32,000 bases of DNA from NCBI RefSeq assembly GCF_042660085.1, contig NZ_JBHSTI010000008.1, positions 300,001 through 332,000 of the forward strand, given 5' to 3'. The stretch comes from Longivirga aurantiaca (GTDB lineage: Bacteria > Actinomycetota > Actinomycetes > S36-B12 > CAIYMF01). A model generated the notes under the pieces. That model saw nothing but the letters and a program-made list of their open reading frames with translations, was not told where the DNA came from and did no database searches. The position numbers were made by a program, and so were the translations under genes. Every line of letters begins with the position of its first letter. Position 1 is the stretch's first letter. This document shows positions 1 through 20,305 of the stretch, in pieces.

Positions 1-643
1 CCAGGTTGGCCAGCGAGCCCGTCCGAAGGACGCCCGAGGGGAACGTCTGGCTCAGCGTCCACTCGCTGGGTATCACCACGGTTGTCAGGCCCGCCGCGAC
101 CGAGGCCTGCGCACCGGTGGCGGAGTCCTCCACCCCGACGGCGGCGCTCGGGCTCACGCCCAGACGGCGAAGTGCGGTGAGGTAGACGTCCGGCGCGGGC
201 TTGGGGGCCGGACCGGCCGGACCTCCCCGCCCGACGACAGCACCGACGGCTGGCAGCAGGCCGAGCGCCTCGACGGCACGGGTGACCACCGAGAGATGAC
301 TGGACGACGCGACCCCGACGGCGATGCCCCGGGCGGCCGCCCGGCGCACGAAGTCGACGGCGCCAGGCATGGGCGTGGGATCCGCGTAGAACCGAGCCAG
401 CCCGTCCTCGCGGCGGCGCAGTAGGTCTGTGACGGCCACGGCCATGCCGTAGTGGGCGACGAGTGCAGCGTAGAGACGGCTCGCGGGGCGGCCGACGTGC
501 AGGGCGAACAGCTCACGGTCGAGGTGCGCCCCCTCGTCGGCAAGAATCCCTCGGGCGACGTCGAACGCAGCAGTCTCGCTGTCGACGAGGAGGCCGTCGA
601 GGTCGAGCACGACTGCGTCCGCCTCCAGCCCGAGCGTCGTCAT
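1..643 (-). CDS. HAD-superfamily hydrolase (beta-phosphoglucomutase/phosphatase-like); 3' end runs off the window
   Basis: This frame is absent from the ORF track because it is open at position 1. My translation from ATG (643-641) reads MTTLGLEADAVVLDLDGLLVDSE...GVASSS...PKPAPDVYL...GVEDSATGAQASVAAGL. That gives HAD motif I (DxDG), motif II (S/T), motif III (K) and motif IV (EDS). The start overlaps the upstream stop by 1 nt (TGATG). Confidence 0.8.
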   Translation of the reverse strand, partial: MTTLGLEADAVVLDLDGLLVDSETAAFDVARGILADEGAHLDRELFALHVGRPASRLYAALVAHYGMAVAVTDLLRRREDGLARFYADPTPMPGAVDFVRRAAARGIAVGVASSSHLSVVTRAVEALGLLPAVGAVVGRGGPAGPAPKPAPDVYLTALRRLGVSPSAAVGVEDSATGAQASVAAGLTTVVIPSEWTLSQTFPSGVLRTGSLANL

Positions 644-1584
644 CAGCCAGCGACGTCGTAGAGCATCGGCTGCTTCGCCAGGCCGCGCATCAGCTCCTCG
701 ACCGCCAGGACCCCGGCGCGCACGATGGCATCGACCGTTGCTGCCCCGCAGTGCGGGGTGAGGACCACGTTGGGCACGCCGCGCAGCAGGCTGTCATCGG
801 GCAGTGGCTCCTGCTCGAAGCTGTCCAGGGCCGCCGCGGCCAGCGGCCCCTGCACGAGTGCCTGCGCGAGGGCGGCCTCGTCCACGATGCCGCCGCGGGC
901 CGAGTTGACGAGCAGGCTGCCAGGTCGCATGGCGGCCAGGAAGGCCGCATCCACGAGGTGGTGGGTCTCGGGGGTGTACGGCGCGTGGATGGAGATGACA
1001 TCCGATCGTGCGAGCAGCTCGTCCAGACCGACCAGCGGGATGTCGCCGGCATCGGCCAGCGGGTCATGGCCGATCACCGTCATGCCGAAGGCGCGAGCGC
1101 GAACAGCCACGTCGCGTCCGATGCGTCCGGTGCCGACGAGCCCGAGGGTGCGCCCGGCGAGCTCGATGCCGCTCGGCCGGGACCAGGAGCCCGCGCGGAT
1201 CGCGCGGTCCATCGTCGTGATCGACCGCGCAGCCGTGAGCATCAGCCCCAGGGTGAGTTCGGCGACGGACGTGGTGGTGGCACCCACGGTGCGCGACACG
1301 CGGATCCCCAGCTCGTCGGCGACCGCGAGATCGACGTTGTCCGTCCCGATGCCGAACCGCACGATCGTCGTGAGGTGCGTCGCCTGCCGGAGCACGGGCT
1401 CGGACGCGTCGTCCACTCCGAGGATCACCCCCGTGCAGCCCACGAGGAGCTCGGACAGCTCGTCCGCGGTAAGGGGGCGCTGCTGGGTGGCGTAGCGGAC
1501 TTCCATGCCGCTCGACGCGAGCAGGTCCCGGTGCGGACCCGGCGTCTCGCGGAAGCCGCGAGGGGTGACGGCGACCGTGGTCAC
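643..1584 (-). CDS. D-isomer-specific 2-hydroxyacid dehydrogenase, NAD-binding (PGDH/GhrB/2-ketoaldonate reductase-like)
   Basis: 313-aa ORF. It has the Rossmann motif GLVGTGRIGRDVA....G, the catalytic R/E block NSARGGIVDEAAL, and the His in LTPHCGAAT. The GTG start at 1584 overlaps the upstream stop (GTGA). Confidence 0.9.
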   Translation of the reverse strand: MTTVAVTPRGFRETPGPHRDLLASSGMEVRYATQQRPLTADELSELLVGCTGVILGVDDASEPVLRQATHLTTIVRFGIGTDNVDLAVADELGIRVSRTVGATTTSVAELTLGLMLTAARSITTMDRAIRAGSWSRPSGIELAGRTLGLVGTGRIGRDVAVRARAFGMTVIGHDPLADAGDIPLVGLDELLARSDVISIHAPYTPETHHLVDAAFLAAMRPGSLLVNSARGGIVDEAALAQALVQGPLAAAALDSFEQEPLPDDSLLRGVPNVVLTPHCGAATVDAIVRAGVLAVEELMRGLAKQPMLYDVAG

Positions 1585-2147
1585 GAGGCCACGTATCGCG
1601 GATTGGGCCGGACCTCGGGGCCCTCCTCCCCTTCGACGACGATCACCGGGAACCCGCGCTCGGCGATCGTCGCGTAGTCGTACCCGGCATCGCCGATGTA
1701 GACGGCGTAGAAGACAAGGGGCGTGGTCCCGGTGTTCACCGAGCGATGCGCCCAGTGGCCGGGCACGTAGTTGGCGATGCCTGGGCGCATCTCCTTCGTG
1801 ACGGTCCTGCCGTCCTCGAGGGCCATGACGAGCAGCCCCTCTCCCGACAACGTCAGGTAGATCTCGGCGCGATCCCGGATGGCGTGGAAGTGCCCCTTCG
1901 TGAAGAAGTACTCGTCGCCGACCTTGCCCGGCGCCAGGACCGTGGTCGACGAGAGCAGGTTGTTCCCCGTCGGGGGCACGCGGACCTCGTGCACGGTATA
2001 GGCACCGACGCCCGGGTCGTCGATGTCGGCGACGAAGTAGCCGTCCAGGTCGGCGAGCCGGCGGTCCAGCACGTCAGGGTCAGGGACGAGCGCTCCGGTG
2101 GCGAAGTCGATCGTCACTGCGAAGGGTTCGAGGGGGGCAGATGTCAC
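1581..2147 (-). CDS. pgiA: Cupin-type (archaeal-type) glucose-6-phosphate isomerase
   Basis: 188-aa ORF with GTG 2147 preceded by GGAGA 7 nt upstream. By-eye alignment to the Pyrococcus furiosus cupin PGI gives long shared blocks. These are PGKVG-E-FFTKGHFHA--DRAE-Y, YVP--WAHR-VN-G--P--F-A-Y--DAG-DY--IAE-GF, and a C-terminal NPR-. The cupin metal ligands (HxH...E...H) are present. Confidence 0.85.
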   Translation of the reverse strand: MTSAPLEPFAVTIDFATGALVPDPDVLDRRLADLDGYFVADIDDPGVGAYTVHEVRVPPTGNNLLSSTTVLAPGKVGDEYFFTKGHFHAIRDRAEIYLTLSGEGLLVMALEDGRTVTKEMRPGIANYVPGHWAHRSVNTGTTPLVFYAVYIGDAGYDYATIAERGFPVIVVEGEEGPEVRPNPRYVAS

Positions 2148-2173
2148 GGCGGTTCTCCGGTCTCGATGGTTGC

Positions 2174-3370
2174 TCAGGCGCGCAGGGCTGTCTGGAACTC
2201 CGTGTCCGCGAGGGCATCGCGCAGCACGCGCATCACGGTCTGGGTCCCGCCTCGCATCGGGTTGATGCGTACGGCGTACTTCTCGAGACCGGGAGTGGCC
2301 TTGAGGAAGGTGCTCGTGAGATAGGTGAAGAGCGGCAGGAACTCGAACTGCGCCTCCTCGCCGACGGACTGGCTCGGGGAGCCGTGGCGCCAGGCGGAGC
2401 GCAGGAAGTGCTCGGCTGCGGGGCGATCGAACAGCAGGACGATGCAGCGGATCCCCGGCTGTGCCGAGTAGGCACCGGCCAGGAACGGCAGGTCACCGGC
2501 CGCGATCCCGGCGTTGATCTCGTCGACTGCCCGCAGGATGGTCTGGTTCTGGATCGCCAGCGCGACCGGCGCGTAGATCAGGGAGCGCAATGCGGCCATG
2601 GCATAGGGCCCTTGGACCTGAGCACCGGCCGAGGCGTTGTCCCGCCGGATCCGGCCGGCGGAGTCAGCGTCCGCGAGCACGGCTCCGATCGCCTGCGGCG
2701 CCAGCAGCTTGAACAGCGACAGCGCGGAGGCGTCCGCGCCCATCTCGACCCCGATGCGGTGCGAGCGCATGACGGCGTAGTTGTCGTCGACGAGGACGCG
2801 CAGGTCATCCCCTCCGACGGAGCGGGCGAGCTCGATCGTCTCCTCGATCCCGTAGGAGTCGCCCAGCTGCTGGGGAACATGCTGGAGGTAGAAGGTGGAG
2901 GGGGAGTGGGCGCGCAACGAACGCTCGAGCTCGGAGGCGTCGTTGAAGTCGACGTACTGCACGTCCAAGCCCATGTGCTGCATCGCGGGCAAGGTGGTCT
3001 TGTAGGGATGCGCCTTGTGCAGCAGTATCCGTGAGCCCGGTTCGACGATCCCGTTGAGCATGGCGCGGATCGACCCCGTCCCCGCCCCGTGCACGAGGAC
3101 CGCCTCATCGGTCCCGAAGAAGCGGGCGAGCACCTCTTCGACGCGCGCGGTCGCCCTCGGTCGACCGCCTCCGCCGAAGCCGACGGTGGCGAGCTCACGG
3201 ACCTGGCCGTAGTCCTCGACGAAGACCTCGTCGGATCCCATGACCTGCGCGGCTGTCTCCACCAGCCGGAACTGGTGCTCGGTGGCGTCCTCGACCGACA
3301 TGTGGTCGCGGACGGCCGTCCGCTCGAACTGGTGAGAGATGTTCTCGACGAAGTCGCGGTCAGAGCTCAC
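2174..3370 (-). CDS. PLP-dependent fold-type-I enzyme, SelA/DgaE-like (possible amino-sugar-acid ammonia-lyase or aminotransferase)
   Basis: The ORF-track frame is 2174..3607, but its first 79 codons overlap the 3' end of the upstream aminotransferase and are R/S/C/P-rich. I start it at GTG 3370 (GAGG 8 nt upstream, 11-nt overlap); ATG 3301 is the alternative. Supporting motifs are VHGAGTGSIRAM, LVDDNYAV, and the candidate PLP lysine in GADASALSLFKLLAPQAIG, which resembles the SelA-family block GADLV-FSG-K-LGGPQ-G. The product call is tentative. Confidence 0.55.
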   Translation of the reverse strand: MSSDRDFVENISHQFERTAVRDHMSVEDATEHQFRLVETAAQVMGSDEVFVEDYGQVRELATVGFGGGGRPRATARVEEVLARFFGTDEAVLVHGAGTGSIRAMLNGIVEPGSRILLHKAHPYKTTLPAMQHMGLDVQYVDFNDASELERSLRAHSPSTFYLQHVPQQLGDSYGIEETIELARSVGGDDLRVLVDDNYAVMRSHRIGVEMGADASALSLFKLLAPQAIGAVLADADSAGRIRRDNASAGAQVQGPYAMAALRSLIYAPVALAIQNQTILRAVDEINAGIAAGDLPFLAGAYSAQPGIRCIVLLFDRPAAEHFLRSAWRHGSPSQSVGEEAQFEFLPLFTYLTSTFLKATPGLEKYAVRINPMRGGTQTVMRVLRDALADTEFQTALRA

Positions 3371-4748
3371 TGAGCACCTCGTCGATCGCGCGGCAGGTCG
3401 CCGACACCATTGCTCGTGCGTCAGGCATCGTGGTGACGAGCGCCGGGAACAGGGTGATGACGTCGCCGGTGGCGCGGAGCATGAAGAGGTTCTCCATCGC
3501 TCGGTCCATGACCCGGCGGCCGACGCCGGACTCCCGGGGGAAGGGAGTCCGTGTCGCGGCGTCCTGCACCAGCTCGATGCCGATGAGCAGCCCCTTCCCA
3601 CGCACATCGCCCACCCTCGGGTGATCGGCGTAGATGCGCGCGAACTCCGCGATCATCCACTCGCCGACCCGCTCTGCGTTGCCGACCAGATCCTCCTTCT
3701 CGATGGCATCGAGCACGGCGATGCCCGCTGCACAGGCTGTGGGGTGCGCCGCGTAGGTGTGGCCCGAGACCTTCGCCTGGCCGCTCGCCTGGTCGCCGTA
3801 GATCGTCTCCATGACGCGCGAGGTGGCGAGTGCCGCGCCCAGCGGCACGTAGCCGCCGGTGATGCCCTTGGAGGAGGTGACGATGTCCGGTGTGACCCCG
3901 AAGTGCTCGAAGCCGAACCATCGACCCGTGCGACCGATCCCGATGAACACCTCGTCGTCGATCCACAGGATGTCGTGGCGGTCGCAGATCTCGCGCAGCC
4001 GACGGAGGTAGTTCGCCGGCGGGACCAGGACGAGCGCAGCCGGGATCGCCTCGGCCAGGATCCCGGCGATCCGCTCGGGGCCGATGTCGAGGATGGTGGC
4101 CTCGAGGGCGTCGGCGCAGGCGTCGCCGTACTCCTCCTCGGTCATGTGGTCCGGACGTCGGTAGGGGTAGCAGGCGTCGACCTCGGCGAACCCCGGCGCG
4201 AGGGGCGCGAACCACGTGCGGAACTCGGCGTTGTCGCTCGCGCTGGCTCCGACCAGCGTCGTGCCGTGGTAGCCCGTCTTCCGGTAGAGGAACATGTTCT
4301 TCCCGGGATTACCGCGAGCGCGGTGGAAGCTCTTCGCCAGCTGCGTCGCGCTCTCGACGGCCTCCGAGCCGGACGAGACGAAGAAGCTCGTCTGTAGATC
4401 CGCGTCGGTCAGACCGGCCAGTCGCCTTCCGAGCTCGATCGAGGGCTCGTTGATGAACGTCCGCAGCGAGACCCAGTGCAGTGTCGTCATCTGCGCGTGG
4501 ACCGCGTCCGCGACGTCCACACGGCCGTGACCGAGGGTCGCGGCAGCCGATCCGCCCGACAGGCCGTCGAGGTACTCGTTCCCGTCCATGTCGGTGACGT
4601 ATACGCCGCTCGCGGACACAGCCAGCGGGCCGCGACCCGTGCGCGTCGCGGCGGCTGAGACTCCATGACGCCAGACGTAGCGGATCGAATCCTCGACGAG
4701 GGCTTCTATTTGCTCGTCCGATGCCCTATTTTTGTCGACCACGGACAC
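3360..4748 (-). CDS. Class-III (omega) aminotransferase
   Basis: 462-aa ORF with GTG 4748 and AGGAGGG 5-6 nt upstream. Class-III blocks are SSGSEAVESATQLAK, WIDDEVFIGIGRTGRWF, and the catalytic Lys in VTSSKGITGGYVPLGA. Confidence 0.9.
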   Translation of the reverse strand: MSVVDKNRASDEQIEALVEDSIRYVWRHGVSAAATRTGRGPLAVSASGVYVTDMDGNEYLDGLSGGSAAATLGHGRVDVADAVHAQMTTLHWVSLRTFINEPSIELGRRLAGLTDADLQTSFFVSSGSEAVESATQLAKSFHRARGNPGKNMFLYRKTGYHGTTLVGASASDNAEFRTWFAPLAPGFAEVDACYPYRRPDHMTEEEYGDACADALEATILDIGPERIAGILAEAIPAALVLVPPANYLRRLREICDRHDILWIDDEVFIGIGRTGRWFGFEHFGVTPDIVTSSKGITGGYVPLGAALATSRVMETIYGDQASGQAKVSGHTYAAHPTACAAGIAVLDAIEKEDLVGNAERVGEWMIAEFARIYADHPRVGDVRGKGLLIGIELVQDAATRTPFPRESGVGRRVMDRAMENLFMLRATGDVITLFPALVTTMPDARAMVSATCRAIDEVLSEL

Positions 4749-4840
4749 TTGCCCTCCTGAAGACGTCGTAACATCATTATCACTCTAGCCCCGCTCGCGA
4801 CCGCTGACAACGCTCTGCCTCACACTCTGGAGCCCGCCGC
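4749..4840. promoter_or_regulatory. Divergent promoter region between the aminotransferase operon and the SIS/ABC/flavoprotein operon
   Basis: A 92-bp gap contains the only AT-rich patch in the neighbourhood (gtaacatcattatcac, 4768-4783). It carries the -10-like hexamers GATAAT (minus strand, 4781-4776) and TAACAT (plus strand, 4769-4774). CACTCTnG is repeated at about 4781 and 4823. No TSS data are available. Confidence 0.3.
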
Positions 4841-5887
4841 ATGACCGTCATCGCATCCACGCCGGGAGGCTGGATGGCTGCCGAGATGGCCGAGCAGCCG
4901 GAGCGCGTGCGCGCCGCCCTCGCGGGTGTGCGCGAGCAGGGCGGTGTTCTGGCACCCCTGGTGGCGTCTGCGCGTGAGGTGCTCGTGCTGGGCCGGGGGT
5001 CCAGCCGCTCCGCCGGCACCTACGCGGCCGAGGCGCTGCGGACGTTCGCGGGGGTCCCGGCATCGACGACGTCGCCGGCGCACCTCGCATGGTCGCAGCA
5101 GCGGCGCCTCGACGGAACGCTCGTCGTCGCGATCTCGCAGTCGGGCGAGAGCACGGAGATCATCGCTGCCGCACGCCGGGCCCTCGAGCTCGGCGCGAAC
5201 CTCGTCGCCGTCACCAACTCGCCGGCATCGGAGCTGGCGGGGCTGGCTGGCCCGCGGCAGACCATCCACTTCCGAGCCGGGAACGAGATCGCGGTCCCGG
5301 CGACCAAGAGCTTCACGTCGTCGCTGGCGTGCCTTCTGGGCCTCGCGATGGCCCATACCCCGACGGGTCTCGTGGACGCGGAGGCGGAGCTGCCGCAGCT
5401 CATGGCCGAGCTGCTGGCCGATCCCGACGCCACGTTCACCCTCGACGGCACGACCGACATCGCTTGCGCGGGTGAAGGATTCGCCGAGGCGGTAGGGGAG
5501 GAAGGTGCGATCAAGCTGCGTGAGACCCTTCGGATTCCCGTCGCCTCGTTCGAGACCAGCGAGTTCCTCCACGGCAGCATCAACTCTGTCCGGCCCCGCT
5601 CGACCCTGGTGACGGTCGACGCCGACCCCTCTGGCCGGAGCCTCGCGGAGCAGGCGGCCGTAGGAGCGGCGAGCAGAGGCGCCGCGACCGTGAGCATCGG
5701 AGCGTCGGCCACGAGCTCCGCCGGGCGCCACATCCGCATCCCGCAGGTCCCGTCCCACTGGGTTCCCTTCCTGGCGGTCCTGCCGATTCAGCGTGCCGCG
5801 CGCGAGGCCGCGATCGCTCGCGGCGAGGACCCCGACCGGCCGCCGGGTCTCTCCAAGATCACGAGGATCGCCACGGGTCCGGCGTGA
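4841..5887 (+). CDS. Double-SIS-domain sugar-phosphate isomerase/deaminase (GlmS C-terminal half / NagB-II / AgaS / FrlB deglycase family)
   Basis: 348-aa ORF. The first SIS repeat shows VLVLGRGSSRSAGTYAA and VAISQSGESTEII. The second shows EEGAIKLRE and ETSEFLHGSIN. There is no glutaminase domain. Confidence 0.85.
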   Translation: MTVIASTPGGWMAAEMAEQPERVRAALAGVREQGGVLAPLVASAREVLVLGRGSSRSAGTYAAEALRTFAGVPASTTSPAHLAWSQQRRLDGTLVVAISQSGESTEIIAAARRALELGANLVAVTNSPASELAGLAGPRQTIHFRAGNEIAVPATKSFTSSLACLLGLAMAHTPTGLVDAEAELPQLMAELLADPDATFTLDGTTDIACAGEGFAEAVGEEGAIKLRETLRIPVASFETSEFLHGSINSVRPRSTLVTVDADPSGRSLAEQAAVGAASRGAATVSIGASATSSAGRHIRIPQVPSHWVPFLAVLPIQRAAREAAIARGEDPDRPPGLSKITRIATGPA

Positions 5888-5969
5888 ATCCCGTCCACGC
5901 CGTCTCGAGCGAACTCGTGATGCAGAGGGTGCCGAGCGCCAGGCGCGCCACAACTGGAAGGAAGCGCTG

Positions 5970-7514
5970 ATGACCGAAGCGACACCACTCATCGACATGC
6001 GTGACATCGCCCTGAGCTTCGGCGTGGTCAAGGCGCTCCGAGGGGTCGACTTCGAGCTGCGGCCCGGCGAGGTGCACGCGCTGCTGGGCCAGAACGGCGC
6101 CGGCAAGTCGACCTTGATCAAGGTTCTGTCCGGCGTCTACCAGCGCGACAGCGGTGATGTCCGGATCCACGGCGAGCCGACCCAGTTCAAGTCGGCCCAG
6201 GAATCACGTGAGAGCGGCATCGCCATGGTCTACCAGGACCTCTCGCTGGTCCCGACCATGACGGTCGCTGCCAACCTGTTCCTCGGACGCGAACCGCATG
6301 GTCCGCTGAAGCTGGTGCGCAACGGCGACCTCGTGGCGAAGGCGCAGAAGTACCTCGACGAGCAGGGCTTCCCGGTGAAGGCGAACGCGACCGTCGACAG
6401 CCTGCCCTTCGCCTACCGGCAGCTCACGGAGATCGCCAAAGCGCTCATGGGCGACATCAGGATCCTGGTCCTGGACGAGCCCACCTCGGCCCTGTCCGCT
6501 GGCGAGGAGGAGATCCTCTTCGACGCGGTCAAGGAGGTCACCAAGCGGGGGGTCGGCGTCGTGTACGTCACGCACCGCCTCCACGAGGTCTTCCGCATCA
6601 GCGACCGCGTCACCGTTCTGCGTGACGGACTCAACGCAGGGACCTTCCAGACCGCAGACATCACCATGGAGGCGCTCGTCCAGTCGATCGTGGGGCCGGG
6701 CCACGAGAAGCTGACGCAGTCGACCCTGAGCCTCGAGGAGGGCGAGCGACGCGCGTCCCACGCAGCCGGGTCCAGCAAGAGCGCCACGCCGGTCATCGAG
6801 CTGCGGGATGTTCACAACGAACGGCTCCATGGTGTGAGCCTCGCCGTTCGTCCGGGGGAGATCCTCGGGCTCGCCGGCATGGTCGGCTCCGGACGGACCG
6901 AGATCCTCGAGACCATGTTCGGGCTGCGCCGGGCGGCCGAGGGCGAGGTGCGCTACCAGGGCGAACCGGTGGCGTGGCGAAGCCCCGCGCGCGCCATCGC
7001 CGCCGGCGTCGCGCTCATCCCCGAGGACCGCCATCTGCAGGGGCTCGTCCTCGGCGACACCATCGCCGCCAACGTGGCCCTGCCCCAGCTCCCCGGGCTC
7101 ACGAGGTCCGGCATGTTCGCCAGGCGCGAGGCGGCCCGACGTGCCAGAGCAGCGGTGTCCGACCTCAATGTGAGGACACCGGGCATCTCCACCAAGCTGC
7201 AGAACCTCTCCGGCGGCAACCAGCAGAAGGTCGTGTTCGGCAAGTGGCTCACTCCCGAGCCGAAGCTCCTGCTGCTCGACGAACCGACCGTCGGGGTCGA
7301 CGTCGGCGCGCGCGACGAGATCTACGGCATCATCCGCCGCTTCGCGCGGGCGGGCTGCGCCGTGGTGGTGATCTCCTCCGACCTGGTCGAGCTCGAGATG
7401 CTCTGCGACAACCTGGCTGTCGTCCACGACGGCCGCATCGTCACCACGGTCCATACGTCCGACATCGAAGGTGAAGAAGGCCTCCACCAACTCGTTCAGG
7501 AGTCAGCGCGATGA
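5970..7514 (+). CDS. Sugar ABC transporter ATP-binding protein, fused double NBD (CUT2, RbsA/MglA/XylG type)
   Basis: ATG 5970 has GGAAGGAAG upstream. The 59 extra codons in the ORF track (5793-5969) are R/P-rich and overlap the SIS gene. NBD1 has Walker A GQNGAGKST and Walker B ILVLDEPTSAL. NBD2 has signature LSGGNQQK and Walker B LLLLDEPTVGVD. The NBD1 signature is degenerate (LPFAYRQ in place of LS-G-QQ). Confidence 0.9.
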   Translation: MTEATPLIDMRDIALSFGVVKALRGVDFELRPGEVHALLGQNGAGKSTLIKVLSGVYQRDSGDVRIHGEPTQFKSAQESRESGIAMVYQDLSLVPTMTVAANLFLGREPHGPLKLVRNGDLVAKAQKYLDEQGFPVKANATVDSLPFAYRQLTEIAKALMGDIRILVLDEPTSALSAGEEEILFDAVKEVTKRGVGVVYVTHRLHEVFRISDRVTVLRDGLNAGTFQTADITMEALVQSIVGPGHEKLTQSTLSLEEGERRASHAAGSSKSATPVIELRDVHNERLHGVSLAVRPGEILGLAGMVGSGRTEILETMFGLRRAAEGEVRYQGEPVAWRSPARAIAAGVALIPEDRHLQGLVLGDTIAANVALPQLPGLTRSGMFARREAARRARAAVSDLNVRTPGISTKLQNLSGGNQQKVVFGKWLTPEPKLLLLDEPTVGVDVGARDEIYGIIRRFARAGCAVVVISSDLVELEMLCDNLAVVHDGRIVTTVHTSDIEGEEGLHQLVQESAR

Positions 7515-13093: not shown

Positions 13094-13105
13094 CTGGCGA
13101 CCGGC

Positions 13106-13141
13106 GAGAGGCCCGTGCCGTCGATCCGGCACGGGCCTCTC
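13106..13141. terminator. Bidirectional intrinsic-terminator-type hairpin between convergent operons
   Basis: Perfect 15-bp stem GAGAGGCCCGTGCCG (13106-13120) / CGGCACGGGCCTCTC (13127-13141) with a 6-nt loop TCGATC. It lies between the etfA stop (13093) and the Gfo/Idh/MocA stop (13173). There is no U-tract, as is common in high-GC actinobacteria. Confidence 0.7.
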
Positions 13142-13172
13142 GTGGTTCGCCAGGGCCGTCGGTCTGCTCGCC

Positions 13173-14261: not shown

Positions 14262-15408
14262 CGACCCACTGCTGGGTTCGCGACGACTCCAGGATCGCGT
14301 CCGCGACGAGCGAGATCCGGTAGCCGTCCTCGAAGTTGGGCCGCACGGGAGTGCCGTTCACGATGGCGCTCACGAAATCGTACGCCTCGATGATCTTCGT
14401 CTCGCCGTACCCGATACCCAGCGCCGGGATCGGCCAGAGGCCCTCGCCGTACGGGTGAGCAGGTCCGGTGTAGACGGTTCGGAACCCGCGCCTGTCGCTG
14501 GGATCGTCGGCGAAGCACACCTGGAGCTCGTCGCGGCGCTCGTAGTTGAAGAAGAGCGAGCCCAGGGTGCCGTGGATCTCGAACGTGATGAAGTTGTTGC
14601 GGCCGTAGCCGTTGCGGGTGGCCTCGAGCGAGCCGACGGCGCCGTTGGCGAATCGCAGCATCGTGACCATCTCGTCGTCGACATCGACCGGACCGAGCTC
14701 GCCACCGGTGCGCGACGTGCCGAGGGCGTCGCGGCCGCCGGACTGCTTCGGGCGCTCCGGGACGATGGTTCGAGCGATCCCGATCACCGACGTGATGTCG
14801 CCGGCGAGGTATCGCGCGAGGTCGATGATGTGCGTACCGATGTCGCCCACCGCCCCCGAGCCGGCGATCGCGCTCTGGAAGCGCCACGACAGCGGCGACG
14901 CGGGGTCCGCGCTCCAGTCCTGGAGGTACGTGCCGCGGAAGTTGAGGATCTCGCCGATGGCCCCCTCGTCGATGTACTTCTTGGCCAGCGCCACAGCCGG
15001 TGTCCGGCGGTAGTTGAAGGCAACCATGTTGACCACGCCCGCGGCAGAGACGGCGTCCAGCATCGTCTTCGCCTCAGCCGCGTTCCGTGCCAGCGGCTTC
15101 TCGCAGATGATGTGCTTGCCAGCCTCGGCAGCAGCGATGGCCATCTCGGGGTGCAGGTGGTTGGGCGTCGCGATGTCGACGATGTCGATGGAGGGGTCCT
15201 CGATCACGCGGCGCCAGTCGCCCGTGCTCGATTCGAAGCCGAACCGTGCGGCGCCCTCTGCGGCGAGCTCCTCAGTGGCCTCAGCGATCACCGCCCGCAC
15301 CGGGATGGCCGGTGCCGGCCAGAAGAACATGGGCATGGCCGCGTAGGCCAGTGAGTGGGCCTTGCCCATGAAGCCGGCCCCGATGAGGCCTACGCGCAGT
15401 TCTCGCAT
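14248..15408 (-). CDS. Gfo/Idh/MocA-family NAD(P)-dependent oxidoreductase (2)
   Basis: I start at ATG 15408 (MRELRVGLIGAGFMGKAHS), which has GGAGA 7 nt upstream. The ORF track's 12 extra N-terminal codons lack an RBS. The family motif IICEKPLARN is present. Confidence 0.85.
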   Translation of the reverse strand: MRELRVGLIGAGFMGKAHSLAYAAMPMFFWPAPAIPVRAVIAEATEELAAEGAARFGFESSTGDWRRVIEDPSIDIVDIATPNHLHPEMAIAAAEAGKHIICEKPLARNAAEAKTMLDAVSAAGVVNMVAFNYRRTPAVALAKKYIDEGAIGEILNFRGTYLQDWSADPASPLSWRFQSAIAGSGAVGDIGTHIIDLARYLAGDITSVIGIARTIVPERPKQSGGRDALGTSRTGGELGPVDVDDEMVTMLRFANGAVGSLEATRNGYGRNNFITFEIHGTLGSLFFNYERRDELQVCFADDPSDRRGFRTVYTGPAHPYGEGLWPIPALGIGYGETKIIEAYDFVSAIVNGTPVRPNFEDGYRISLVADAILESSRTQQWVDVDG

Positions 15409-15494: not shown

Positions 15495-16334
15495 TCAGCC
15501 GAGGGTGATGCCGAGTTCGGTGATGATCTGGTCGAGGTGAGCCTTGGATGCCTTGGCCGCCTCGAGGTTGGATCCGGCATACTCATCCAGCTCGACCATG
15601 AGCCAGCTGTCGTAGCCCGTCTCGGTCACGGCTCGCACGATGTCGGTGAAGTCGAGGGTCCCTGCACCGAGCGGGGTCCAGGTGAAGGGATCGGGCTTCC
15701 AGTCCTTCAGGTGGACGTGCTTGATGCGATCGGAGTGCGAGCGGATCATCGCGGCGGGGTCTCCGCCGGCTGCTGCGAGGTGCCCGGTGTCCGGGCACAG
15801 GCCGATCTCGCTCAGGTCCATGATCCGTGCGAGCTCGACCGGGTTCTCGACGATGGTCGTCAGGTGGGGGTGGTACGTCGCGACGAGTCCCCGGTCGGCA
15901 GCCATGCGGTCGACGAGGTCCAGGCCGTTGCCCAGCGCGATGTAGTCCTCGTCGGTGGTGCCGGCGGCACGACGGGCACCTCCACCGACCACGAGCCGCT
16001 CGGCTCCGAACCTGACGGCGAGCTCGATGGCGCGCGAGATCTTGTCCATCTCGTCGGGAAGGATGTCGGCGTAGATGAAGTTCGCGCCGGTGTAGACACT
16101 GACCAGCTCCAGGCCGTTCGCCTCGAGCAGGCCGAGCAGGTCGTCCGGTCGGTCTGCGTACTTGGCCACGTCGCCGTCGAACATCTCGGTGCCGGTGTAG
16201 CCGGCCTCGGCGATGTCACGGGCGGCGTCGGCGATATCGCCCACCCCGCAGTAGAAGAGGTCCTTGATGCTCGTCACGCCGACCGGATGGCCGAGGACGC
16301 CGCCCCAGGTGATCGAGTGGTAGCCGAGCTTCAC
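15495..16334 (-). CDS. Xylose-isomerase-like TIM-barrel enzyme (IolE inosose-dehydratase-like / sugar lyase-hydratase type)
   Basis: 279-aa ORF. By-eye similarity to B. subtilis IolE: YHPHLTTIVENPVE vs YHHHMGTGIQTKEE; CPDTGHLAAAGGDPAAMIRSHSDRIKHVHLKD vs [37 protein letters not shown] vs GDGDLDF; LMVELDEY vs IVVEAEQD. Confidence 0.8.
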   Translation of the reverse strand: MKLGYHSITWGGVLGHPVGVTSIKDLFYCGVGDIADAARDIAEAGYTGTEMFDGDVAKYADRPDDLLGLLEANGLELVSVYTGANFIYADILPDEMDKISRAIELAVRFGAERLVVGGGARRAAGTTDEDYIALGNGLDLVDRMAADRGLVATYHPHLTTIVENPVELARIMDLSEIGLCPDTGHLAAAGGDPAAMIRSHSDRIKHVHLKDWKPDPFTWTPLGAGTLDFTDIVRAVTETGYDSWLMVELDEYAGSNLEAAKASKAHLDQIITELGITLG

Positions 16335-16378
16335 GAGGTCTCCTTGTGCTGCAGTGGATGTGTGGGGGCCGTCGGATG

Positions 16379-17299
16379 TCAGCCGACGATGAGTGGTGCG
16401 AGCGTGCGATGAGCGATCTCGAGGCCTGTCTTGACCTTGTCCTCGGTGCCGCCCCAGATCGGGTCCTCATGCTCGACCGACAGCACGCCCTCGAACCCGC
16501 CTTCGTAAAGGGCATCGACGACCGCGGTCCAGTCGACCTGGCCGAGGCCGGGGACGCGATACCGCCACCAGCCGACGTCCCAGGGATCCGGTCGGTCGAT
16601 GGCCTTGCCGGGCCATCCGTACCGGTTGCGCAGTTCCGGGAAGACCTGGATGTCCTTGGCCTGCGCATGCGGGATCCGGTCGATGTAGGGGGTGAGCGCA
16701 GCCACCGGATCGATACCCATCCACACCAGATGCGACGGGTCGTAGTTCAGGTACAGGCCGATCGAGAACATCCACTCCCACAGCTCAGGGGAGTAGGCGA
16801 GGTTGCCGGGGTAGCCGTCGGGGTGCCAGCCCTCCATGACGCAGTTCTCGATCACGAGCTTGACGCCCTTCTCGCCTGCTGAGTCGACGAGGGGCTTGAA
16901 GACCTCCTCCGCCTCCGCGAGGTTCGCCGCGACCGACCGGGAGGGGTCGCGGCCCACGAAGGTCCCGACCGTGGGACAGCCGAGGAGGGCGGCGGCGTCG
17001 ATGCATGCGAGCACGTGCTCGTTGATCGCGGAGCGCTCGGCGGGGTCCGGGTGCAGGTTGTTGTCGTAGAACGCCAGCGAGGACAACGTGAGTCCGGAGG
17101 TGTCGAAGCGCTCCCTGATGTCCTCGGCCGCGGAGCGATCGAGCGTCTCGACGGCGATGTGCGTCGCGGTGAAGGGGCGATTCCCGACGGCAGGCCAGGC
17201 GGCGACCTCGAGGGCCTGGTAGCCCGCAGCGGCCCCCCACTCGATGATGGCATCGAGGGGCTGGTCGGGCAGGCAGGCGGTGAGGAAGCCCAACTTCAT
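16379..17299 (-). CDS. Sugar phosphate isomerase/epimerase-family TIM-barrel protein
   Basis: 306-aa ORF with ATG 17299 and AAGGAGA 8 nt upstream. It shows the AP_endonuc_2-type pattern (MKLGFLTACLP...GYQALEV..., NYDPSHLVWMGID, HAQAKD, LSVEHED). Confidence 0.8.
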   Translation of the reverse strand: MKLGFLTACLPDQPLDAIIEWGAAAGYQALEVAAWPAVGNRPFTATHIAVETLDRSAAEDIRERFDTSGLTLSSLAFYDNNLHPDPAERSAINEHVLACIDAAALLGCPTVGTFVGRDPSRSVAANLAEAEEVFKPLVDSAGEKGVKLVIENCVMEGWHPDGYPGNLAYSPELWEWMFSIGLYLNYDPSHLVWMGIDPVAALTPYIDRIPHAQAKDIQVFPELRNRYGWPGKAIDRPDPWDVGWWRYRVPGLGQVDWTAVVDALYEGGFEGVLSVEHEDPIWGGTEDKVKTGLEIAHRTLAPLIVG

Positions 17300-17315
17300 G
17301 ACCCTGTCTCCTTCG

Positions 17316-17407: not shown

Positions 17408-18667
17408 GTGCCAGCGGACCTGTCCCCCTCGGGCGATCTCATCGCCGTGCTGCGCAGGGTCCGTGAGGCGGGGCATACGACCCGTGCCGACCTGGGTCGG
17501 GATCTGGGCCTCCGTCGCGGGGTCGTGACCCAGCGGGTCTCGGCTCTGCTGGACCTCGGGCTCGTCGACGAGGCGGTGACCCGTCGTTCCTCGGGCGGCC
17601 GCGCCCCCCGAGAGCTGGCCTTCCGGCGGGACGCAGGGTTCGTGCTGGTGGCCGACCTCGGCGCGACCACCTTGGTAGCCGGGGTAGCCGACCTGTCCGG
17701 AGCGCTGGTCGCGACTCGCGAGAGCCCAGCCGATGTCACCGATGGCCCGGAACGCGTCCTGGAGCAGCTCGAGTCGACCTGGGTGGACCTGGTCCAGGAG
17801 TCGGGAGTCGGACGGGAACGGATCTGGGGCGCGGGGATCGGGGTCCCCGGGCCCGTCGAGTTCGCGACCGGTCGGCCGATCTCGCCGCCGATCATGCCGG
17901 GATGGGACTCCTACCCGGTGCGCGAGCGGCTGGCGACCGCCTTCGACGTACCCGTGTGGGTCGACAACGAGGTGAACCTGGAAGCCCTCGGCGAGTCCCG
18001 GATCGGCCTGGGGCGCGGAGTCGCCGAGATGATCTTCGTGAAGATGAGCGTCGGGATCGGTTCCGGCGTGATCTCGCGGTCCGTGCTGCATCGTGGCGCG
18101 AACGGGGCGGCTGGCGACATCGGCCACATCGCGGTCGTCCAGGACGAAACCGCCACCTGTCGATGCGGGAACACCGGATGCCTCGAGGCCGTAGCCGGCG
18201 GGCTCTCGCTGGTGCGAACCGCGACCGAGCGGGCCGCGCTCGAGAGGTCGAGCGTCCTGGGGCGCATGGTCGATGAGGGCCAGTCTCTGGCTGTCGACGA
18301 CATCACCTCGGCCGCCGGGAGCGGTGACGCCGTCGCTGTCGACCTGCTGACGCATTCGGGCCGCCTGGTCGGGGACACCCTCTCGACGCTGGTCAACTTC
18401 TACAACCCGGGGCTGCTGGTGCTCGGGGGACGCCTCGTGCAGGGCAACGACGTGGTGCTCTCGACGGTGCGCGAGACGGTCTACGGGCGATCACTTCCGC
18501 TCGCCACGCGAAACCTCGTCATCGCCCGCAGCGAGCTCGGGCCGCTGGGCGGTCTCGTCGGAGCAGCCGTGATGGTGGTCGACGAGCTCTTCTCGCGCAC
18601 CCGCTTCCCGCTCTGGTCCCCTCAGAAGTCCCCTCATGGACATCCCGAGATTGCGAATCCCCGATGA
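17408..18667 (+). CDS. ROK-family transcriptional regulator (N-terminal wHTH plus ROK sugar-binding/kinase-like domain)
   Basis: 419-aa ORF. The wHTH region reads LIAVLRRVREAGHTTRADLGRDLGLRRGVVTQRVSALLDLGLV. The ROK glycine-rich and zinc motif reads GAAGDIGHIAVVQDETATCRCGNTGCLEAVAGG. Confidence 0.85.
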   Translation: MPADLSPSGDLIAVLRRVREAGHTTRADLGRDLGLRRGVVTQRVSALLDLGLVDEAVTRRSSGGRAPRELAFRRDAGFVLVADLGATTLVAGVADLSGALVATRESPADVTDGPERVLEQLESTWVDLVQESGVGRERIWGAGIGVPGPVEFATGRPISPPIMPGWDSYPVRERLATAFDVPVWVDNEVNLEALGESRIGLGRGVAEMIFVKMSVGIGSGVISRSVLHRGANGAAGDIGHIAVVQDETATCRCGNTGCLEAVAGGLSLVRTATERAALERSSVLGRMVDEGQSLAVDDITSAAGSGDAVAVDLLTHSGRLVGDTLSTLVNFYNPGLLVLGGRLVQGNDVVLSTVRETVYGRSLPLATRNLVIARSELGPLGGLVGAAVMVVDELFSRTRFPLWSPQKSPHGHPEIANPR

Positions 18668-18951
18668 GTCTCTTCACGGTCGCCCACTTCCACTGCCTCG
18701 CCGGACGCGGGCCGGAAGTCGAGGCCTTCCTCGCGCCGCTCGTCGAGCCGACCACGTCGGAGGACGGCTGCGTCTACTACCGCTACTTCCGCGACACGAG
18801 CGATCCGGACCACTTCGTGTTCTGGGAGCAGTGGCGGGACGACGACGCACTCGACACGCATATCGGAACGGCTCGGGTGCAGTCGATGCTCGTCTCGGTC
18901 CAGCCCTTGCTGGCCGCCCCGGTCGCCGCCTATCGGCTCAGCCTTCGGTGA
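18664..18951 (+). CDS. ABM-domain (antibiotic-biosynthesis-monooxygenase-like) small protein
   Basis: 95-aa ORF with ATGA coupling to the ROK stop. The pattern is typical of the ferredoxin-like ABM fold (FTVAHFH...EVEAFL...E.GC..Y..F.D..DP..FVFWE.W.D..AL..H). Confidence 0.75.
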   Translation: MSLFTVAHFHCLAGRGPEVEAFLAPLVEPTTSEDGCVYYRYFRDTSDPDHFVFWEQWRDDDALDTHIGTARVQSMLVSVQPLLAAPVAAYRLSLR

Positions 18952-20305
18952 CTCTCGGCTCACGGCCCTCGGTGGGCAGCACCGGGGGGACGCGGTTCTC
19001 CCCAGCCCATGCAGCGAAGTAGGCGGGTCGGAAGATCTCGTCGAGTGCGAGGGCCGTAGCCCCGTGCAGCGCCGCCCGCTCCCCGAGCGCCACCTTGGCG
19101 ATGACGAGTTCCCGCGTCGCGAGGGGGAGGGAGCGGGAGTAGACGATGTTCCGGACGGTCGCCAGGTAGGCGTCCCCGGCGAGCATCAGACGCCCGCCGA
19201 GAAGGATCAAGGACGGGTTGAAGAAGTTCACGATCCTGGCCAGCGTGTCGCCCACCAGTCGCGCCGACTCGGTCATCAGCACGACGCTCGCCCGGTCGCC
19301 GCTCACTGCGCCGGCAACGACATCGGCGGCGGCGAGTGGGCGGAGCTCGGCCCGCTCGGCAAGGAAGGGGCTCTCGCCACGCGCAGCCAGCTCAGCGCCA
19401 CGCCGCGCCAGAGCCCACCCGCTCGCCAACGCCTCGAGGCACCCGGTGTTGCCGCAGCGACACTGGATAGTGGGATCGTCGCTCACCTTGACGTGGCCGA
19501 TGTCGCCCGCAGAACCCTGCGCCCCACGATGGAGCACGCCGTTGGAGACGAGCCCGGCACCGATCCCTGTGCTGATCTTGACCACCACGATGTCGCTGTG
19601 ATCGACGGCCGCCCCAGCACGGAGCTCGCCGAGAGCCATGACGTTGACGTCGTTGTCGATCCAGACGGGCACGTTGTAGCGGTCCTGCATCACGCCGCGG
19701 ATGTCGAACTCGTTCCAGCCCGGCATGATCGGCGGGCTGACTGCCCGGCCTGTCGCGAACTCGACTGGACCGGGGATGCTGATGCCGATCCCCCACAGAT
19801 GGACGTCGAAGATCTGGCGGTTGTGGAGGATCTTGTCGAACTCCGCGATGACGGTCTTGAGCGTCTCCTCGGGGCCGGTGCTGATGTCGTTCGGCAGGTA
19901 GACCCGCTCGAGGATGCCGCCCGCAAGGTCGGCCAGGCCGACGAACATGCCCTGTGCGCCGATGTCCGCGGCGAGTACGAAGCCGCGCAGCTTGTTGAAC
20001 TGGAGGCCGCGCGGTGAACGCCCGCGAGGGACGGCCAGCACGTCGCCTTCGACGATGAGATCCAGCTCGATCAGCTGCTCCAGGCGCTGGGTGATCACAG
20101 CCCGCCCGAGCTCGCTGCTCCTCACCAGATCCGGCCTGGTCACGGCGGATCCGGAGCGCACGAGGTTCAGCACCTGCAGCAGGGTCTGTGCCTGCTCTTC
20201 CGCTACCACGCCGCCACGATAGCCGGATCCTCGCAGCGCTTGTTCATGCTCGGGGTCGCTCGCCATCCGGTTCGGATGGTGCGGGCGGAGGTCTGCGATC
20301 GCCAA
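18938..20305 (-). CDS. ROK-family transcriptional regulator, paralogue of 17408..18667
   Basis: 455-aa ORF. wHTH: LLQVLNLVRSGSAVTRPDLVRSSELGRAVITQRLEQLIELDLI. Zinc motif: GSAGDIGHVKVSDDPTIQCRCGNTGCLEALASG. Long blocks are shared with the other ROK (PGPVEFATGR..SPPIMPGW, VPVW.DN.VN..ALGE). The start is uncertain: ATG 20305, ATG 20266, or the GTG at VVAEEQ. Confidence 0.85.
   Translation of the reverse strand: MAIADLRPHHPNRMASDPEHEQALRGSGYRGGVVAEEQAQTLLQVLNLVRSGSAVTRPDLVRSSELGRAVITQRLEQLIELDLIVEGDVLAVPRGRSPRGLQFNKLRGFVLAADIGAQGMFVGLADLAGGILERVYLPNDISTGPEETLKTVIAEFDKILHNRQIFDVHLWGIGISIPGPVEFATGRAVSPPIMPGWNEFDIRGVMQDRYNVPVWIDNDVNVMALGELRAGAAVDHSDIVVVKISTGIGAGLVSNGVLHRGAQGSAGDIGHVKVSDDPTIQCRCGNTGCLEALASGWALARRGAELAARGESPFLAERAELRPLAAADVVAGAVSGDRASVVLMTESARLVGDTLARIVNFFNPSLILLGGRLMLAGDAYLATVRNIVYSRSLPLATRELVIAKVALGERAALHGATALALDEIFRPAYFAAWAGENRVPPVLPTEGREPRVTEG

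Follow-up and report, generated by a model that had tools for sequence, protein, structure and literature searches.

The leftmost 20,305 nucleotides of a 32,000-nucleotide stretch of Longivirga aurantiaca DNA (contig NZ_JBHSTI010000008.1, positions 300,001 to 332,000; hereafter the window) hold three catabolic gene sets: module A (<1-5887), module B (5970-13093), and module C (13173-20305). We consider it likely that this 20-kb region is a mosaic of separable modules, found next to one another in Longivirga aurantiaca and in a small number of further actinobacterial lineages. The assembly is probably an island that has spread horizontally. One third of the region adds a member to a known pathway, the degradation of levoglucosan, a sugar abundantly formed by biomass burning. 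The remaining two thirds correspond to variants of gene sets that are recognisable but have no assigned function. A preliminary description of the region had proposed a single system for a sugar-amine conjugate, with an enzyme combination that matched no recognised pathway. The single-system view fares poorly because the modules occur separately in other genomes. The lack of a recognised pathway does not extend to the two Gfo/Idh/MocA enzymes and two TIM barrels of module C, which correspond to the published levoglucosan pathway of LgdA, LgdB1, LgdB2 or LgdB3, and LgdC. For the gene set as a whole the claim of novelty stands in part, as the experimentally characterised pathway covers only one third of it.

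The lgdA gene of module C encodes an LgdA orthologue. Over its full length the protein matches PDB entries 6A3F and 6A3I (662 bits, E 3e-198, ~78% identity), the levoglucosan dehydrogenase (LGDH) of Pseudarthrobacter phenanthrenivorans (PMC7676230, PMC10066097). The alignment retains both proposed catalytic residues, Glu103 and His193; the published criterion for LgdA membership is more than 60% identity to a characterised LGDH together with these two residues (PMC10066097). Levoglucosan had been among the candidate substrates listed in the preliminary description, and this homologue bears out that choice.

In the published pathway, LgdA oxidizes levoglucosan at C3 (Kuritani et al. PMC7676230; Kaur et al. 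PMC10066097). LgdB1, a TIM barrel of ~275 residues of family PF01261, eliminates the anhydro bridge, and LgdB2, possibly LgdB3, hydrates the resulting glucal (PMC7676230, PMC10066097). LgdC, a Gfo paralogue that is 32-33% identical to LgdA (Table S3), reduces 3-keto-glucose to glucose (PMC10066097). LgdB1 occurs in 253 of 265 lgdA neighbourhoods, and ROK regulators are among the typical neighbours (PMC10066097). The other enzymes of module C can be assigned to these steps by family, size, synteny, and the published scheme. A 279-residue TIM barrel lies directly upstream of lgdA, and its size and place fit LgdB1. Its homologues are 83-87% identical in Nocardioides aquiterrae and in loci of metagenome-assembled genomes (MAGs), and 49-54% identical beside LgdA-like genes in three further loci (L068, L071, L091). 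The second, 306-residue barrel weakly matches the 2-hydroxy-3-keto-glucal hydratase 8RO4 (28 bits) and could be placed as either the B2 or the B3 type. Its homologues (66-78% identical) are paired with LgdC-like genes in Georgenia, L025, and L055/L061/L062; the N. aquiterrae locus has none. The LgdC-like protein is 33% identical to the adjacent LgdA homologue over 389 columns, a value that shows consistency with LgdC, not identity of function. It has homologues of 60-87% identity in related loci.

Module C would thus work as follows. LgdA would oxidize levoglucosan to 3-keto-levoglucosan, and the LgdB1-like barrel would eliminate the 1,6-anhydro bridge to give 2-hydroxy-3-keto-glucal. The LgdB2/B3-like barrel would hydrate this glucal to 3-keto-glucose, and the LgdC-like protein would reduce 3-keto-glucose to glucose, with the ROK proteins as likely regulators. 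The operon resembles the LGDH systems of P. phenanthrenivorans, Paenarthrobacter spp., and Bacillus smithii (PMC7676230, PMC10066097; PDB 6A3F-6A3J) in its two Gfo/Idh/MocA proteins and two PF01261 barrels, its highly similar LgdA, its barrel of LgdB1 size, and the ROK genes nearby. It differs from them in that the ABC importer of the window lies in a separate operon with an SDR (short-chain dehydrogenase/reductase), an Fe-S flavoenzyme, and an electron-transfer flavoprotein (ETF), none of which belongs to the published pathway. Levoglucosan consumers would likely gain a freshwater Sporichthyales lineage and Nanopelagicales-like relatives, a useful and unsurprising addition. Georgenia sp. AZ-5 (L031 12795-19609) carries homologues of the 306-residue barrel (72%), the LgdC-like Gfo (60%), and ROK, and a CUT1 ABC transporter as a unit of their own, without LgdA or LgdB1. 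This arrangement suggests that the hydratase/reductase pair also serves substrates other than levoglucosan.

The three modules can be found apart. The yhf/aminotransferase/cupin/SIS set of module A occurs without the ABC, flavoprotein, ETF, or lgd genes in Arthrobacter, Microbispora, and Sphaerisporangium. Homologues of the module B flavoprotein accompany CUT2, Gfo, and TIM genes in 40-plus metagenomic loci without amine genes. The synteny of the three operons, which the preliminary description had made a test of its single system, is kept in Nocardioides, Blastococcus, and Nanopelagicales and does not reach beyond those. Identities to N. aquiterrae are high (LgdA 88%, aminotransferase 83%, flavoenzyme 79%). 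The G+C content at third codon positions (GC3) is 0.83-0.89 within the region and mostly 0.93-0.96 in the right flank. High identity between orders, together with lower GC3, is easier to reconcile with the lateral spread of an island than with one obligate pathway. At its right edge the region has a real boundary, because a metagenomic contig (L001, 97% identical) is collinear with the window from 6379 to 20444 and then carries unrelated genes. To the left, the island continues beyond the window, as the preliminary description had supposed.

This continuation is seen in a Logan contig (L003), found through a look-up of the cupin protein, that is 99.7% identical to window positions 1-4850 and reaches 8 kb further left. 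It carries, in order, the full HAD gene, Enzyme I (EI) of the phosphotransferase system (PTS), HPr, a YhfX-like fold-III pyridoxal phosphate (PLP) enzyme, a YhfW-like phosphomutase, a PRD protein, DUF2620/YhfU, a GntR/UTRA regulator, an AroE-like dehydrogenase, and a Php-type hydrolase. This hydrolase (PTE) is 100% identical to a Longivirga aurantiaca protein, as is the flavoenzyme of module B; the species is a member of Sporichthyales. BLAST comparison with the 3.497-3.515 Mb region of E. coli K-12 gave identities of 40% for YhfX, 40% for YhfW, 34% for YhfU, and 33% for Php. YhfW passes the NCBIfam model NF009049 ("phosphopentomutase") with 437 bits against a cut-off of 254, the Php-type hydrolase resembles phospho-sugar lactonases, and the GntR/UTRA regulator is 26% identical to FrlR. 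By these similarities module A is the right-hand end of an actinobacterial version of the orphan yhfZYXW-php-yhfUTS cluster of E. coli. The HAD gene, truncated by the left end of the window, encodes 222 residues in L003 and is absent from the Nocardioides and Blastococcus versions.

The window itself contributes the YhfS protein, which is 39-41% identical to E. coli YhfS (BLAST). Its sole sequence match in the PDB is the YhfS structure 4J8L (237 bits). An AlphaFold model (pLDDT 86) has 4J8L as its top Foldseek match (TM 0.82/0.91), followed by methionine gamma-lyase and cystathionine gamma-synthase. The family is small, with 164 representative clusters among 1.84 billion. The preliminary description had labelled this protein SelA/DgaE-like. 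That label has to be replaced by orthology to E. coli YhfS: Pfam SelA was matched by 2 of 13 family members, with a best E of 0.057, and the window protein was not matched. A 747-residue protein (P0362) is matched by the YhfS query in two stretches and could represent a fused or duplicated YhfS fold.

The other enzymes of module A are linked to YhfS by gene order. The aminotransferase gene always adjoins the YhfS gene in the actinobacterial loci, and the 2-hydroxyacid dehydrogenase gene, whose top NCBIfam match is PGDH at 241 bits (below cut-off), adjoins the cupin gene in at least 15 related loci. Cupin-type phosphoglucose isomerases (cPGIs) are typical of Thermococcales. The window cupin scores 157 bits against the Pyrococcus cPGI structures 1X7N/1QXJ, its metal motif GHFH...E...H is readable in the sequence, and it is predicted to be a genuine archaeal-type cPGI. 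Actinobacterial yhf-type clusters conserve this cupin, with 52-92% identity across loci. The double-SIS protein scores 121 bits against the glucosamine-6-phosphate deaminase NagB-II (8EOL), and in Microbispora, Arthrobacter, and Aeromicrobium its gene accompanies the yhf genes.

When genomes were scanned with an alignment of YhfS sequences, 23 loci were returned, which were annotated by tblastn. The aminotransferase-YhfS-cPGI-2-hydroxyacid dehydrogenase set and the SIS gene recur with EI, HPr, YhfX, YhfW, PRD, DUF2620, GntR, AroE-like, and Php genes, and the core set is conserved in at least 15 genome loci. Such clusters occur in Nanopelagicales MAGs, Blastococcus, Nocardioides, Arthrobacter sp. 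KN11-1C, Sphaerisporangium, and Microbispora. The Microbispora cluster includes the KDPG/KHG aldolase Eda (above the TIGR01182 cut-off; KDPG is 2-keto-3-deoxy-6-phosphogluconate); Eda also lies near the island in Nocardioides and the MAGs, and there is none in the window. Aeromicrobium has an E. coli-like yhfZ-Y-U-T-php-S-X-W order, with a coupled double-SIS gene adjoining yhfW. A dihydrodipicolinate synthase-family gene that follows this SIS gene was rejected as a pathway aldolase, as its surroundings, thyA ... dapA-RNase J, are a housekeeping arrangement. Georgenia carries YhfT, DUF2620, a histidine-phosphatase-fold protein, Gfo, the aminotransferase, and two YhfS paralogues. A minimal, Gaiellales-type version consists of only an EI-HPr fusion, GntR, YhfT, DUF2620, YhfX, PRD, a PHP-domain esterase, and YhfS.

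Like the E. coli K-12 cluster yhfZ-yhfY-yhfX-yhfW-php-yhfU-yhfT-yhfS (b3376-b3383), the actinobacterial version keeps YhfS, YhfX, YhfW, YhfU, Php (33-41% identical), and a PRD protein in one neighbourhood. Unlike it, the actinobacterial version adds EI, HPr, the class-III aminotransferase, cPGI, the D-2-hydroxyacid dehydrogenase, the double-SIS protein, the AroE-like protein, and sometimes HAD. The lineage of the window also has the GntR/UTRA regulator in place of YhfZ, with YhfZ-like genes confined to L029 and L030, and lacks a nearby YhfT. No YhfT-like membrane protein was found in the window, in L003, or in the relatives L114 and L116 (~20 kb in this lineage); YhfT is present in L016, L017, L019, L022-L026, and L029-L031. 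To our knowledge, no function has been assigned to E. coli yhfS-Z/php for decades, and the literature searched for yhfS/T/U/W/X/Y/Z, DUF2620, and Php contained no functional study. The actinobacterial context (EI/HPr, NagB-II-like SIS, cPGI, aminotransferase, 2-hydroxyacid dehydrogenase, and in some cases Eda) would narrow the substrates of this orphan cluster to a few that can be tested.

The preliminary description found no sugar kinase in the window, which is correct, and suggested looking for a kinase and a binding protein to the left. EI and HPr in L003 would explain the missing kinase, and a PfkB kinase lies ~15 kb beyond the left end of the window in relatives; the extended loci of relatives contain no binding protein. 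Beyond Php, the close relatives L114 (10971-17268) and L116 (10971-17319) carry a 151-residue protein (small subunit) with a GMC oxidoreductase, a second ETF alpha/beta pair, Eda, IclR, and PfkB. These genes appear to add to the super-island another ETF-linked dehydrogenase, along with a KDG/KDPG module (KDG being the unphosphorylated form of KDPG).

We tentatively regard the substrate of module A as an amino sugar or amino-aldonate, a possibility that falls well short of an even expectation. The cluster's own EI and HPr, with its PRD and UTRA-type regulators, suggest phosphoenolpyruvate (PEP)-dependent phosphorylation of the substrate, for which a kinase is not needed. An imported amino sugar or 2-amino-2-deoxy-aldonate would be phosphorylated in this way. 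A SIS protein closest to NagB-II combined with a cPGI suggests conversion of amino-hexose-6-phosphate to fructose-6-phosphate and then glucose-6-phosphate, which these two enzymes would yield. The gamma-lyase-like YhfS, aided by the racemase-fold YhfX, could deaminate and dehydrate an amino-aldonate phosphate to a KDPG-type product for Eda. The aminotransferase and the PGDH/KguD-like dehydrogenase could provide a route from 2-amino through 2-keto to 2-hydroxy compounds. Glucosamine and glucosaminate had also been on the earlier substrate list. We count that suggestion as right insofar as the amino-sugar or amino-aldonate assignment, itself conjectural, is correct.

A comparable logic is known from Salmonella dgaABCDEF. 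There, PTS uptake is followed by the ammonia-lyase DgaE, which converts 2-amino-2-deoxy-aldonate-6-phosphate to KDPG, and by the aldolase DgaF, which forms pyruvate and glyceraldehyde-3-phosphate. Module A as proposed would share PTS-type phosphorylation, a fold-type-I PLP lyase, and a KDPG-type aldolase, given the Eda genes in or near related clusters. It differs in that YhfS lies outside the SelA/DgaE family, mannose-family EII components are absent, and the window has no aldolase. The double-SIS deglycase systems frl of E. coli and fra and gfr of Salmonella offer a second comparison. They share with module A a double-SIS enzyme, a GntR/UTRA regulator, and a presumed phosphorylated sugar-amine. 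Module A differs from them in having a SIS protein nearer NagB-II/GlmS than FrlB, no FrlD-type kinase, and many extra PLP and redox enzymes.

These systems raise the question of whether module A degrades Amadori or Heyns products, that is, glycated amino acids. PTS-type phosphorylation, an FrlB/GfrE-like SIS deglycase, and cPGI would then process the sugar, and degradation of the amino acid would fall to YhfS, YhfX, the aminotransferase, and the 2-hydroxyacid dehydrogenase. Double-SIS proteins recur with yhf genes, frlABCDR abuts the yhf cluster in E. coli, and the regulator has the noted similarity to FrlR. The window SIS protein, however, scores only 36 bits against FrlB (25% identity over 114 residues only) compared with 121 bits against NagB-II/GlmS, and glycated amino acids leave the phosphomutase YhfW, the lactonase-like Php, and the Microbispora Eda unexplained. 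We regard this alternative as unlikely, and as somewhat less probable than the amino-sugar or amino-aldonate proposal.

The central enzyme of module B shows the features of the trimethylamine dehydrogenase (TMADH)/histamine dehydrogenase (HADH) family: a flavin mononucleotide (FMN) domain, a Cys4 4Fe-4S motif, a third nucleotide-binding domain, and an ETF partner. The motif C353-x2-C356-x3-C360-x11-C372 is invariant among 15 homologues. The three-domain architecture and the Cys4 motif are shared with TMADH, HADH, FadH, and BaiCD alike, and the PDB scores are nearly equal (FadH 227, 2-naphthoyl-CoA reductase NCR 222, HADH 217, TMADH 189 bits). The protein falls below every curated NCBIfam cut-off, and its second-best NCBIfam match is BaiCD. 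The segment AHDGLLRSF aligns with the "AH" of TMADH/HADH, not the "SEGY" of FadH. Identity as FadH was rejected because the Glu164/Tyr166 pair is replaced, the aligned residues being His181 and Gly183. The mycofactocin-associated FadH/OYE oxidoreductase 2 (TIGR03997; OYE is old yellow enzyme) was rejected as well, at 590.6 bits against a cut-off of 793 and with no mft genes in the window. The family has no conserved cysteine for 6-S-cysteinyl-FMN: the consensus after the PH motif is F-T-A-L, and the cysteine that the window protein has two residues on is not conserved.

A metagenome scan with a 15-sequence alignment of the flavoenzyme returned 79 loci, and neighbours were counted in the 49 loci of at least 8 kb. 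CUT2 ATPase and permease genes occur in 28 of the 49, LacI in 15, ETF beta in 14, Gfo-type genes in 12-14, SDR in 10, ROK in 9, and TIM-type genes in 7-11. Aminotransferase genes occur in 3 of the 49, and SIS, YhfS, or cupin genes in 2, which are close relatives only. Full Pfam annotation of L061 gave the order Gfo / ROK / ATPase-permease-binding protein-flavoenzyme-TIM-Gfo-TIM-ABM, and that of L066 the order ATPase-permease-binding protein-flavoenzyme-TIM-binding protein-LgdA-like (67%)-ATPase-permease. LgdA-like genes (65-68% identical) stand beside the flavoenzyme gene in L040, L066, and L091. In L034 (7075-15768), a 60%-identical flavoenzyme and an ETF-TIM-Gfo series lie just downstream of genes for a 513-residue anhydro-sugar kinase of the AnmK family, a CUT1 binding protein, and a permease. 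This locus appears to provide an independent link of the flavoenzyme family to anhydro-sugars. The lgd operon follows ETF in every close relative that reaches past ETF (L001, L033, L035, L036).

Because the neighbours of the flavoenzyme are Gfo, TIM, CUT2, ROK, and LacI genes, not amine genes, we assign module B to the side of sugar oxidation. In the preferred mechanism, the flavoenzyme would dehydrogenate a sugar intermediate and pass the electrons to its own ETF. BaiCD introduces a double bond next to the 3-oxo group of 3-oxo-steroids. One form of the mechanism would be a BaiCD-like alpha,beta-desaturation next to a 3-keto group, which would give 2-hydroxy-3-keto-glucal for the hydratase/reductase pair. 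Such a desaturation would admit anhydro- and deoxy-sugars that are incapable of beta-elimination.

TMADH works with an ETF partner, and this likeness allows another reading, in which module B serves module A. The flavoenzyme would be an ETF-linked amine dehydrogenase acting on an amino sugar, fructosamine, or N-alkyl-glucamine imported by the adjacent ABC transporter, with SIS, cPGI, and PLP enzymes processing the products. The flavoenzyme gene shares an operon with the SIS gene, the active-site His aligns with His172 of TMADH and with HADH, not with Glu164/Tyr166 of FadH, and the ETF partner is as for TMADH. Unlike TMADH and HADH, however, the flavoenzyme family lacks the conserved cysteine for covalent FMN, and it also lacks Tyr166 of FadH. 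Its genomic partners are sugar transporters, Gfo, TIM, and ROK/LacI genes, not aminotransferases or SIS, and Arthrobacter, Microbispora, and Sphaerisporangium carry the yhf set without the flavoenzyme. An amine dehydrogenase in the service of module A is unlikely, but it is a serious rival to the sugar-oxidation reading.

A broader proposal combines the sugar-oxidation reading of module B with the reading of module A. It holds that the flavoenzyme and ETF form an ETF-linked sugar dehydrogenase, for example a 3-keto-sugar 1,2-desaturase, and that the actinobacterial yhf cluster reveals a PTS-dependent amino-sugar or amino-aldonate role of E. coli yhfS-Z/php. This joint claim is speculative, and we give it only a small chance of being right in both parts. 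If it were true, anhydro- and 1-deoxy-sugars, such as 1,5-anhydroglucitol and other pyrolysis anhydrosugars, would feed an LgdB3-type hydratase and an LgdC-type reductase, forming a new branch on the oxidation-elimination-hydration-reduction scheme. The recurrence of the Fe-S flavoenzyme family by Gfo/TIM/CUT2 genes in many phyla-level contexts would point to a missing redox step in 3-keto- and anhydrosugar metabolism. A literature search found nothing relevant linking OYE or ETF to levoglucosan, or on bacterial 1,5-anhydroglucitol catabolism. Neither flavoproteins nor ETF are named in the supplements of PMC10066097 as proteins induced by levoglucosan.

The single pathway of the preliminary description can now be weighed against the mosaic. 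It would import and dismantle an Amadori, Heyns, opine-like, or N-glycoside conjugate, with the SIS protein releasing hexose-6-phosphate and the flavoprotein/ETF and PLP enzymes handling the amine. The conserved contiguity and order of the modules, the apparent co-transcription of the SIS and ABC/flavoenzyme genes, the AH motif with its dedicated ETF, and the frlABCDR neighbours of the E. coli yhf cluster all speak for it. It is nevertheless improbable, as LgdA is ~78% identical to a levoglucosan-specific enzyme, the modules are found independently elsewhere, and only 2-3 of the 49 flavoenzyme loci include amine-handling genes. The regulators are also separate, with GntR/PRD on one side and two ROK proteins on the other, and a strong hairpin stands between operons B and C.

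Several points still weigh against the mosaic and the functions proposed for its parts. The three-module order is kept across four orders of Actinomycetes (Longivirga, Nanopelagicales MAGs, Blastococcus, and Nocardioides); this conservation might reflect coupled functions instead of a common island. The SIS and ABC genes lie on the same strand with an 82-bp gap and no predicted terminator, and the SIS gene of module A is probably co-transcribed with the module B genes. In module C, the putative LgdB1, LgdB2/B3, and LgdC assignments come from family, size, synteny, and the published scheme, and published lgd loci include a cognate solute-binding protein that the window lacks. The active-site His of the flavoenzyme, by its alignment with amine dehydrogenases, favours a C-N substrate. 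In module A, the substrate is a guess; NagB-II with cPGI, the aminotransferase with the 2-hydroxyacid dehydrogenase, and YhfS with Eda look partly redundant, and without a YhfT-type protein the PTS-type uptake step has no identified permease.

It is very improbable that the modules share an intermediate, with the aminotransferase turning a kanosamine-type 3-amino sugar into 3-keto-glucose or its 6-phosphate, the LgdC-like reductase finishing, and the hydratase/reductase end in common: Georgenia and MAG L025 do have an aminotransferase-Gfo pair in a yhf-type cluster beside homologues of the 306-residue barrel (72-78%), the LgdC-like gene (60-64%), and ROK, and the NtdC/NtdA/NtdB kanosamine route is a precedent for such chemistry, but the aminotransferase stays with yhf genes where no lgd genes are nearby, and NtdA-type enzymes belong to a different PLP family.

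The features of the region are collected in Table 1. The window has ~70% G+C; genes were called by GC3 and then scanned with Pfam and NCBIfam. All genes listed in the preliminary description were recovered where it had placed them, and nearly all of its family calls agree with the scans. Its inventory missed the SDR gene (8497-9306) and the 95-residue ABM gene (18664-18951, plus strand). Most genes within each operon overlap by 1-14 nt.

Table 1. Genes and intergenic features of the 20-kb region, with positions in the window
Feature	Position	Strand	Remarks
HAD-IA phosphatase, beta-PGM/YqaB-like	<1..643	-	Pfam Hydrolase/HAD_2; all NCBIfam matches below cut-offs
D-isomer 2-hydroxyacid dehydrogenase, PGDH/GhrB-like	643..1584	-	313 aa; Pfam 2-Hacid_dh_C 3e-59
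Cupin-type phosphoglucose isomerase (predicted cPGI)	1581..2147	-	188 aa; Pfam GPI PF06560
YhfS-family PLP enzyme, fold type I, gamma-lyase-like	2174..3370	-	398 aa; YhfS-like_C domain
Class-III (omega) aminotransferase-family PLP enzyme	3360..4748	-	462 aa; Pfam Aminotran_3 6e-86; no NCBIfam model at cut-off
Divergent control region, aminotransferase/SIS	4749..4873		Sigma-70-like -35/-10 at 4810-4782, minus strand
Double-SIS protein, NagB-II/GlmS-C-like sugar-phosphate deaminase or isomerase	4874..5887	+	337 aa; two SIS domains
CUT2 ATPase, fused double	5970..7514	+	Pfam ABC_tran x2; AraG/XylG/RbsA-like, below NCBIfam cut-offs
CUT2 permease, single	7511..8500	+	Pfam BPD_transp_2; AraG/XylG/RbsA-like importer, below cut-offs
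SDR oxidoreductase, glucose 1-dehydrogenase-like subfamily	8497..9306	+	269 aa; Pfam adh_short_C2
Flavoenzyme, FMN (OYE-fold)/4Fe-4S/FAD-type	9303..11375	+	690 aa; Pfam Oxidored_FMN and Pyr_redox_2
ETF beta	11376..12128	+	Pfam ETF
ETF alpha	12125..13093	+	Pfam ETF_alpha
Convergent intergenic hairpin between flavoenzyme and lgd operons	13094..13172		GGCGAGAGGCCCGTGCCG...CGGCACGGGCCTCTCG
LgdC-like Gfo/Idh/MocA, putative 3-keto-glucose reductase	13173..14261	-	362 aa; Pfam GFO_IDH_MocA
Predicted LgdA, levoglucosan dehydrogenase	14248..15408	-	386 aa; Gfo/Idh/MocA; PDB 6A3F/6A3I match
LgdB1-like TIM barrel, putative 3-keto-levoglucosan beta-eliminase	15495..16334	-	279 aa; xylose-isomerase fold; Pfam AP_endonuc_2
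Second, larger TIM barrel, LgdB2/LgdB3-like, putative 2-hydroxy-3-keto-glucal hydratase	16379..17299	-	306 aa; Pfam AP_endonuc_2
ROK-family regulator 1	17408..18667	+	Pfam ROK
ABM-domain protein	18664..18951	+	95 aa; coupled to ROK1; Pfam ABM on orthologues in L001, L002, L033, L061
ROK-family regulator 2	18938..20305	-	Pfam ROK 4e-58; start uncertain, ATG 20266 likely

The importer of module B has no binding-protein gene. As the preliminary description had stated, the window contains none: with four CUT2 binding proteins as queries, tblastn hit only the LacI repressor (24.3-24.8 kb), and the same search found none in the extended loci of relatives. In distant homologous loci a Peripla_BP_4 gene directly follows the permease gene, and the Longivirga lineage has the SDR gene in that slot. 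The SDR passes NCBIfam NF005559 with 238.6 bits (cut-off 215). The ETF genes are translationally coupled to the flavoenzyme gene, and the hairpin that follows them is probably a bidirectional terminator, judged from its sequence and its convergent position.

In the divergent control region of module A, shuffled sequences would be expected to give 0.1 sigma-70-like -35/-10 sites. A simple search found no palindromic operators in the divergent control regions, and Rfam and tRNA scans of the window had no match, so the window shows no riboswitch and no tRNA integration site. The Pfam ROK domain of regulator 1 begins at residue 83, so that a DNA-binding part would fit ahead of it at the N terminus. 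The small ABM protein recurs in such sugar loci: in Longivirga and Nocardioides its gene is coupled to ROK, and in L061 (12038-12334) it lies 3' of the hydratase-like barrel. It might be a mutarotase- or tautomerase-like helper.

Past the strain-level breakpoint, contig L001 (1-3515) encodes a Cupin_2 protein, a weak LAGLIDADG_3 match, and AAA_25. In the window itself, the genes directly to the right of the island encode a PAS-GGDEF diguanylate cyclase at 20942-22420, a GH1 beta-glucosidase at 22485-24086 (546 bits), and, on the minus strand, a LacI repressor at 24161-25189. The GC3 of the genes in 20942-25189 is 0.93-0.95, much above that of the island. Further right, two longest open reading frames overlap by ~500 nt on opposite strands, which makes their starts uncertain: the minus-strand frame (25976-27703) encodes a PspC/LiaF-like membrane protein, the plus-strand frame (27177-28604) a PspC-domain histidine kinase. 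The 25976-28604 segment looks like a cell-envelope stress module apart from the island.

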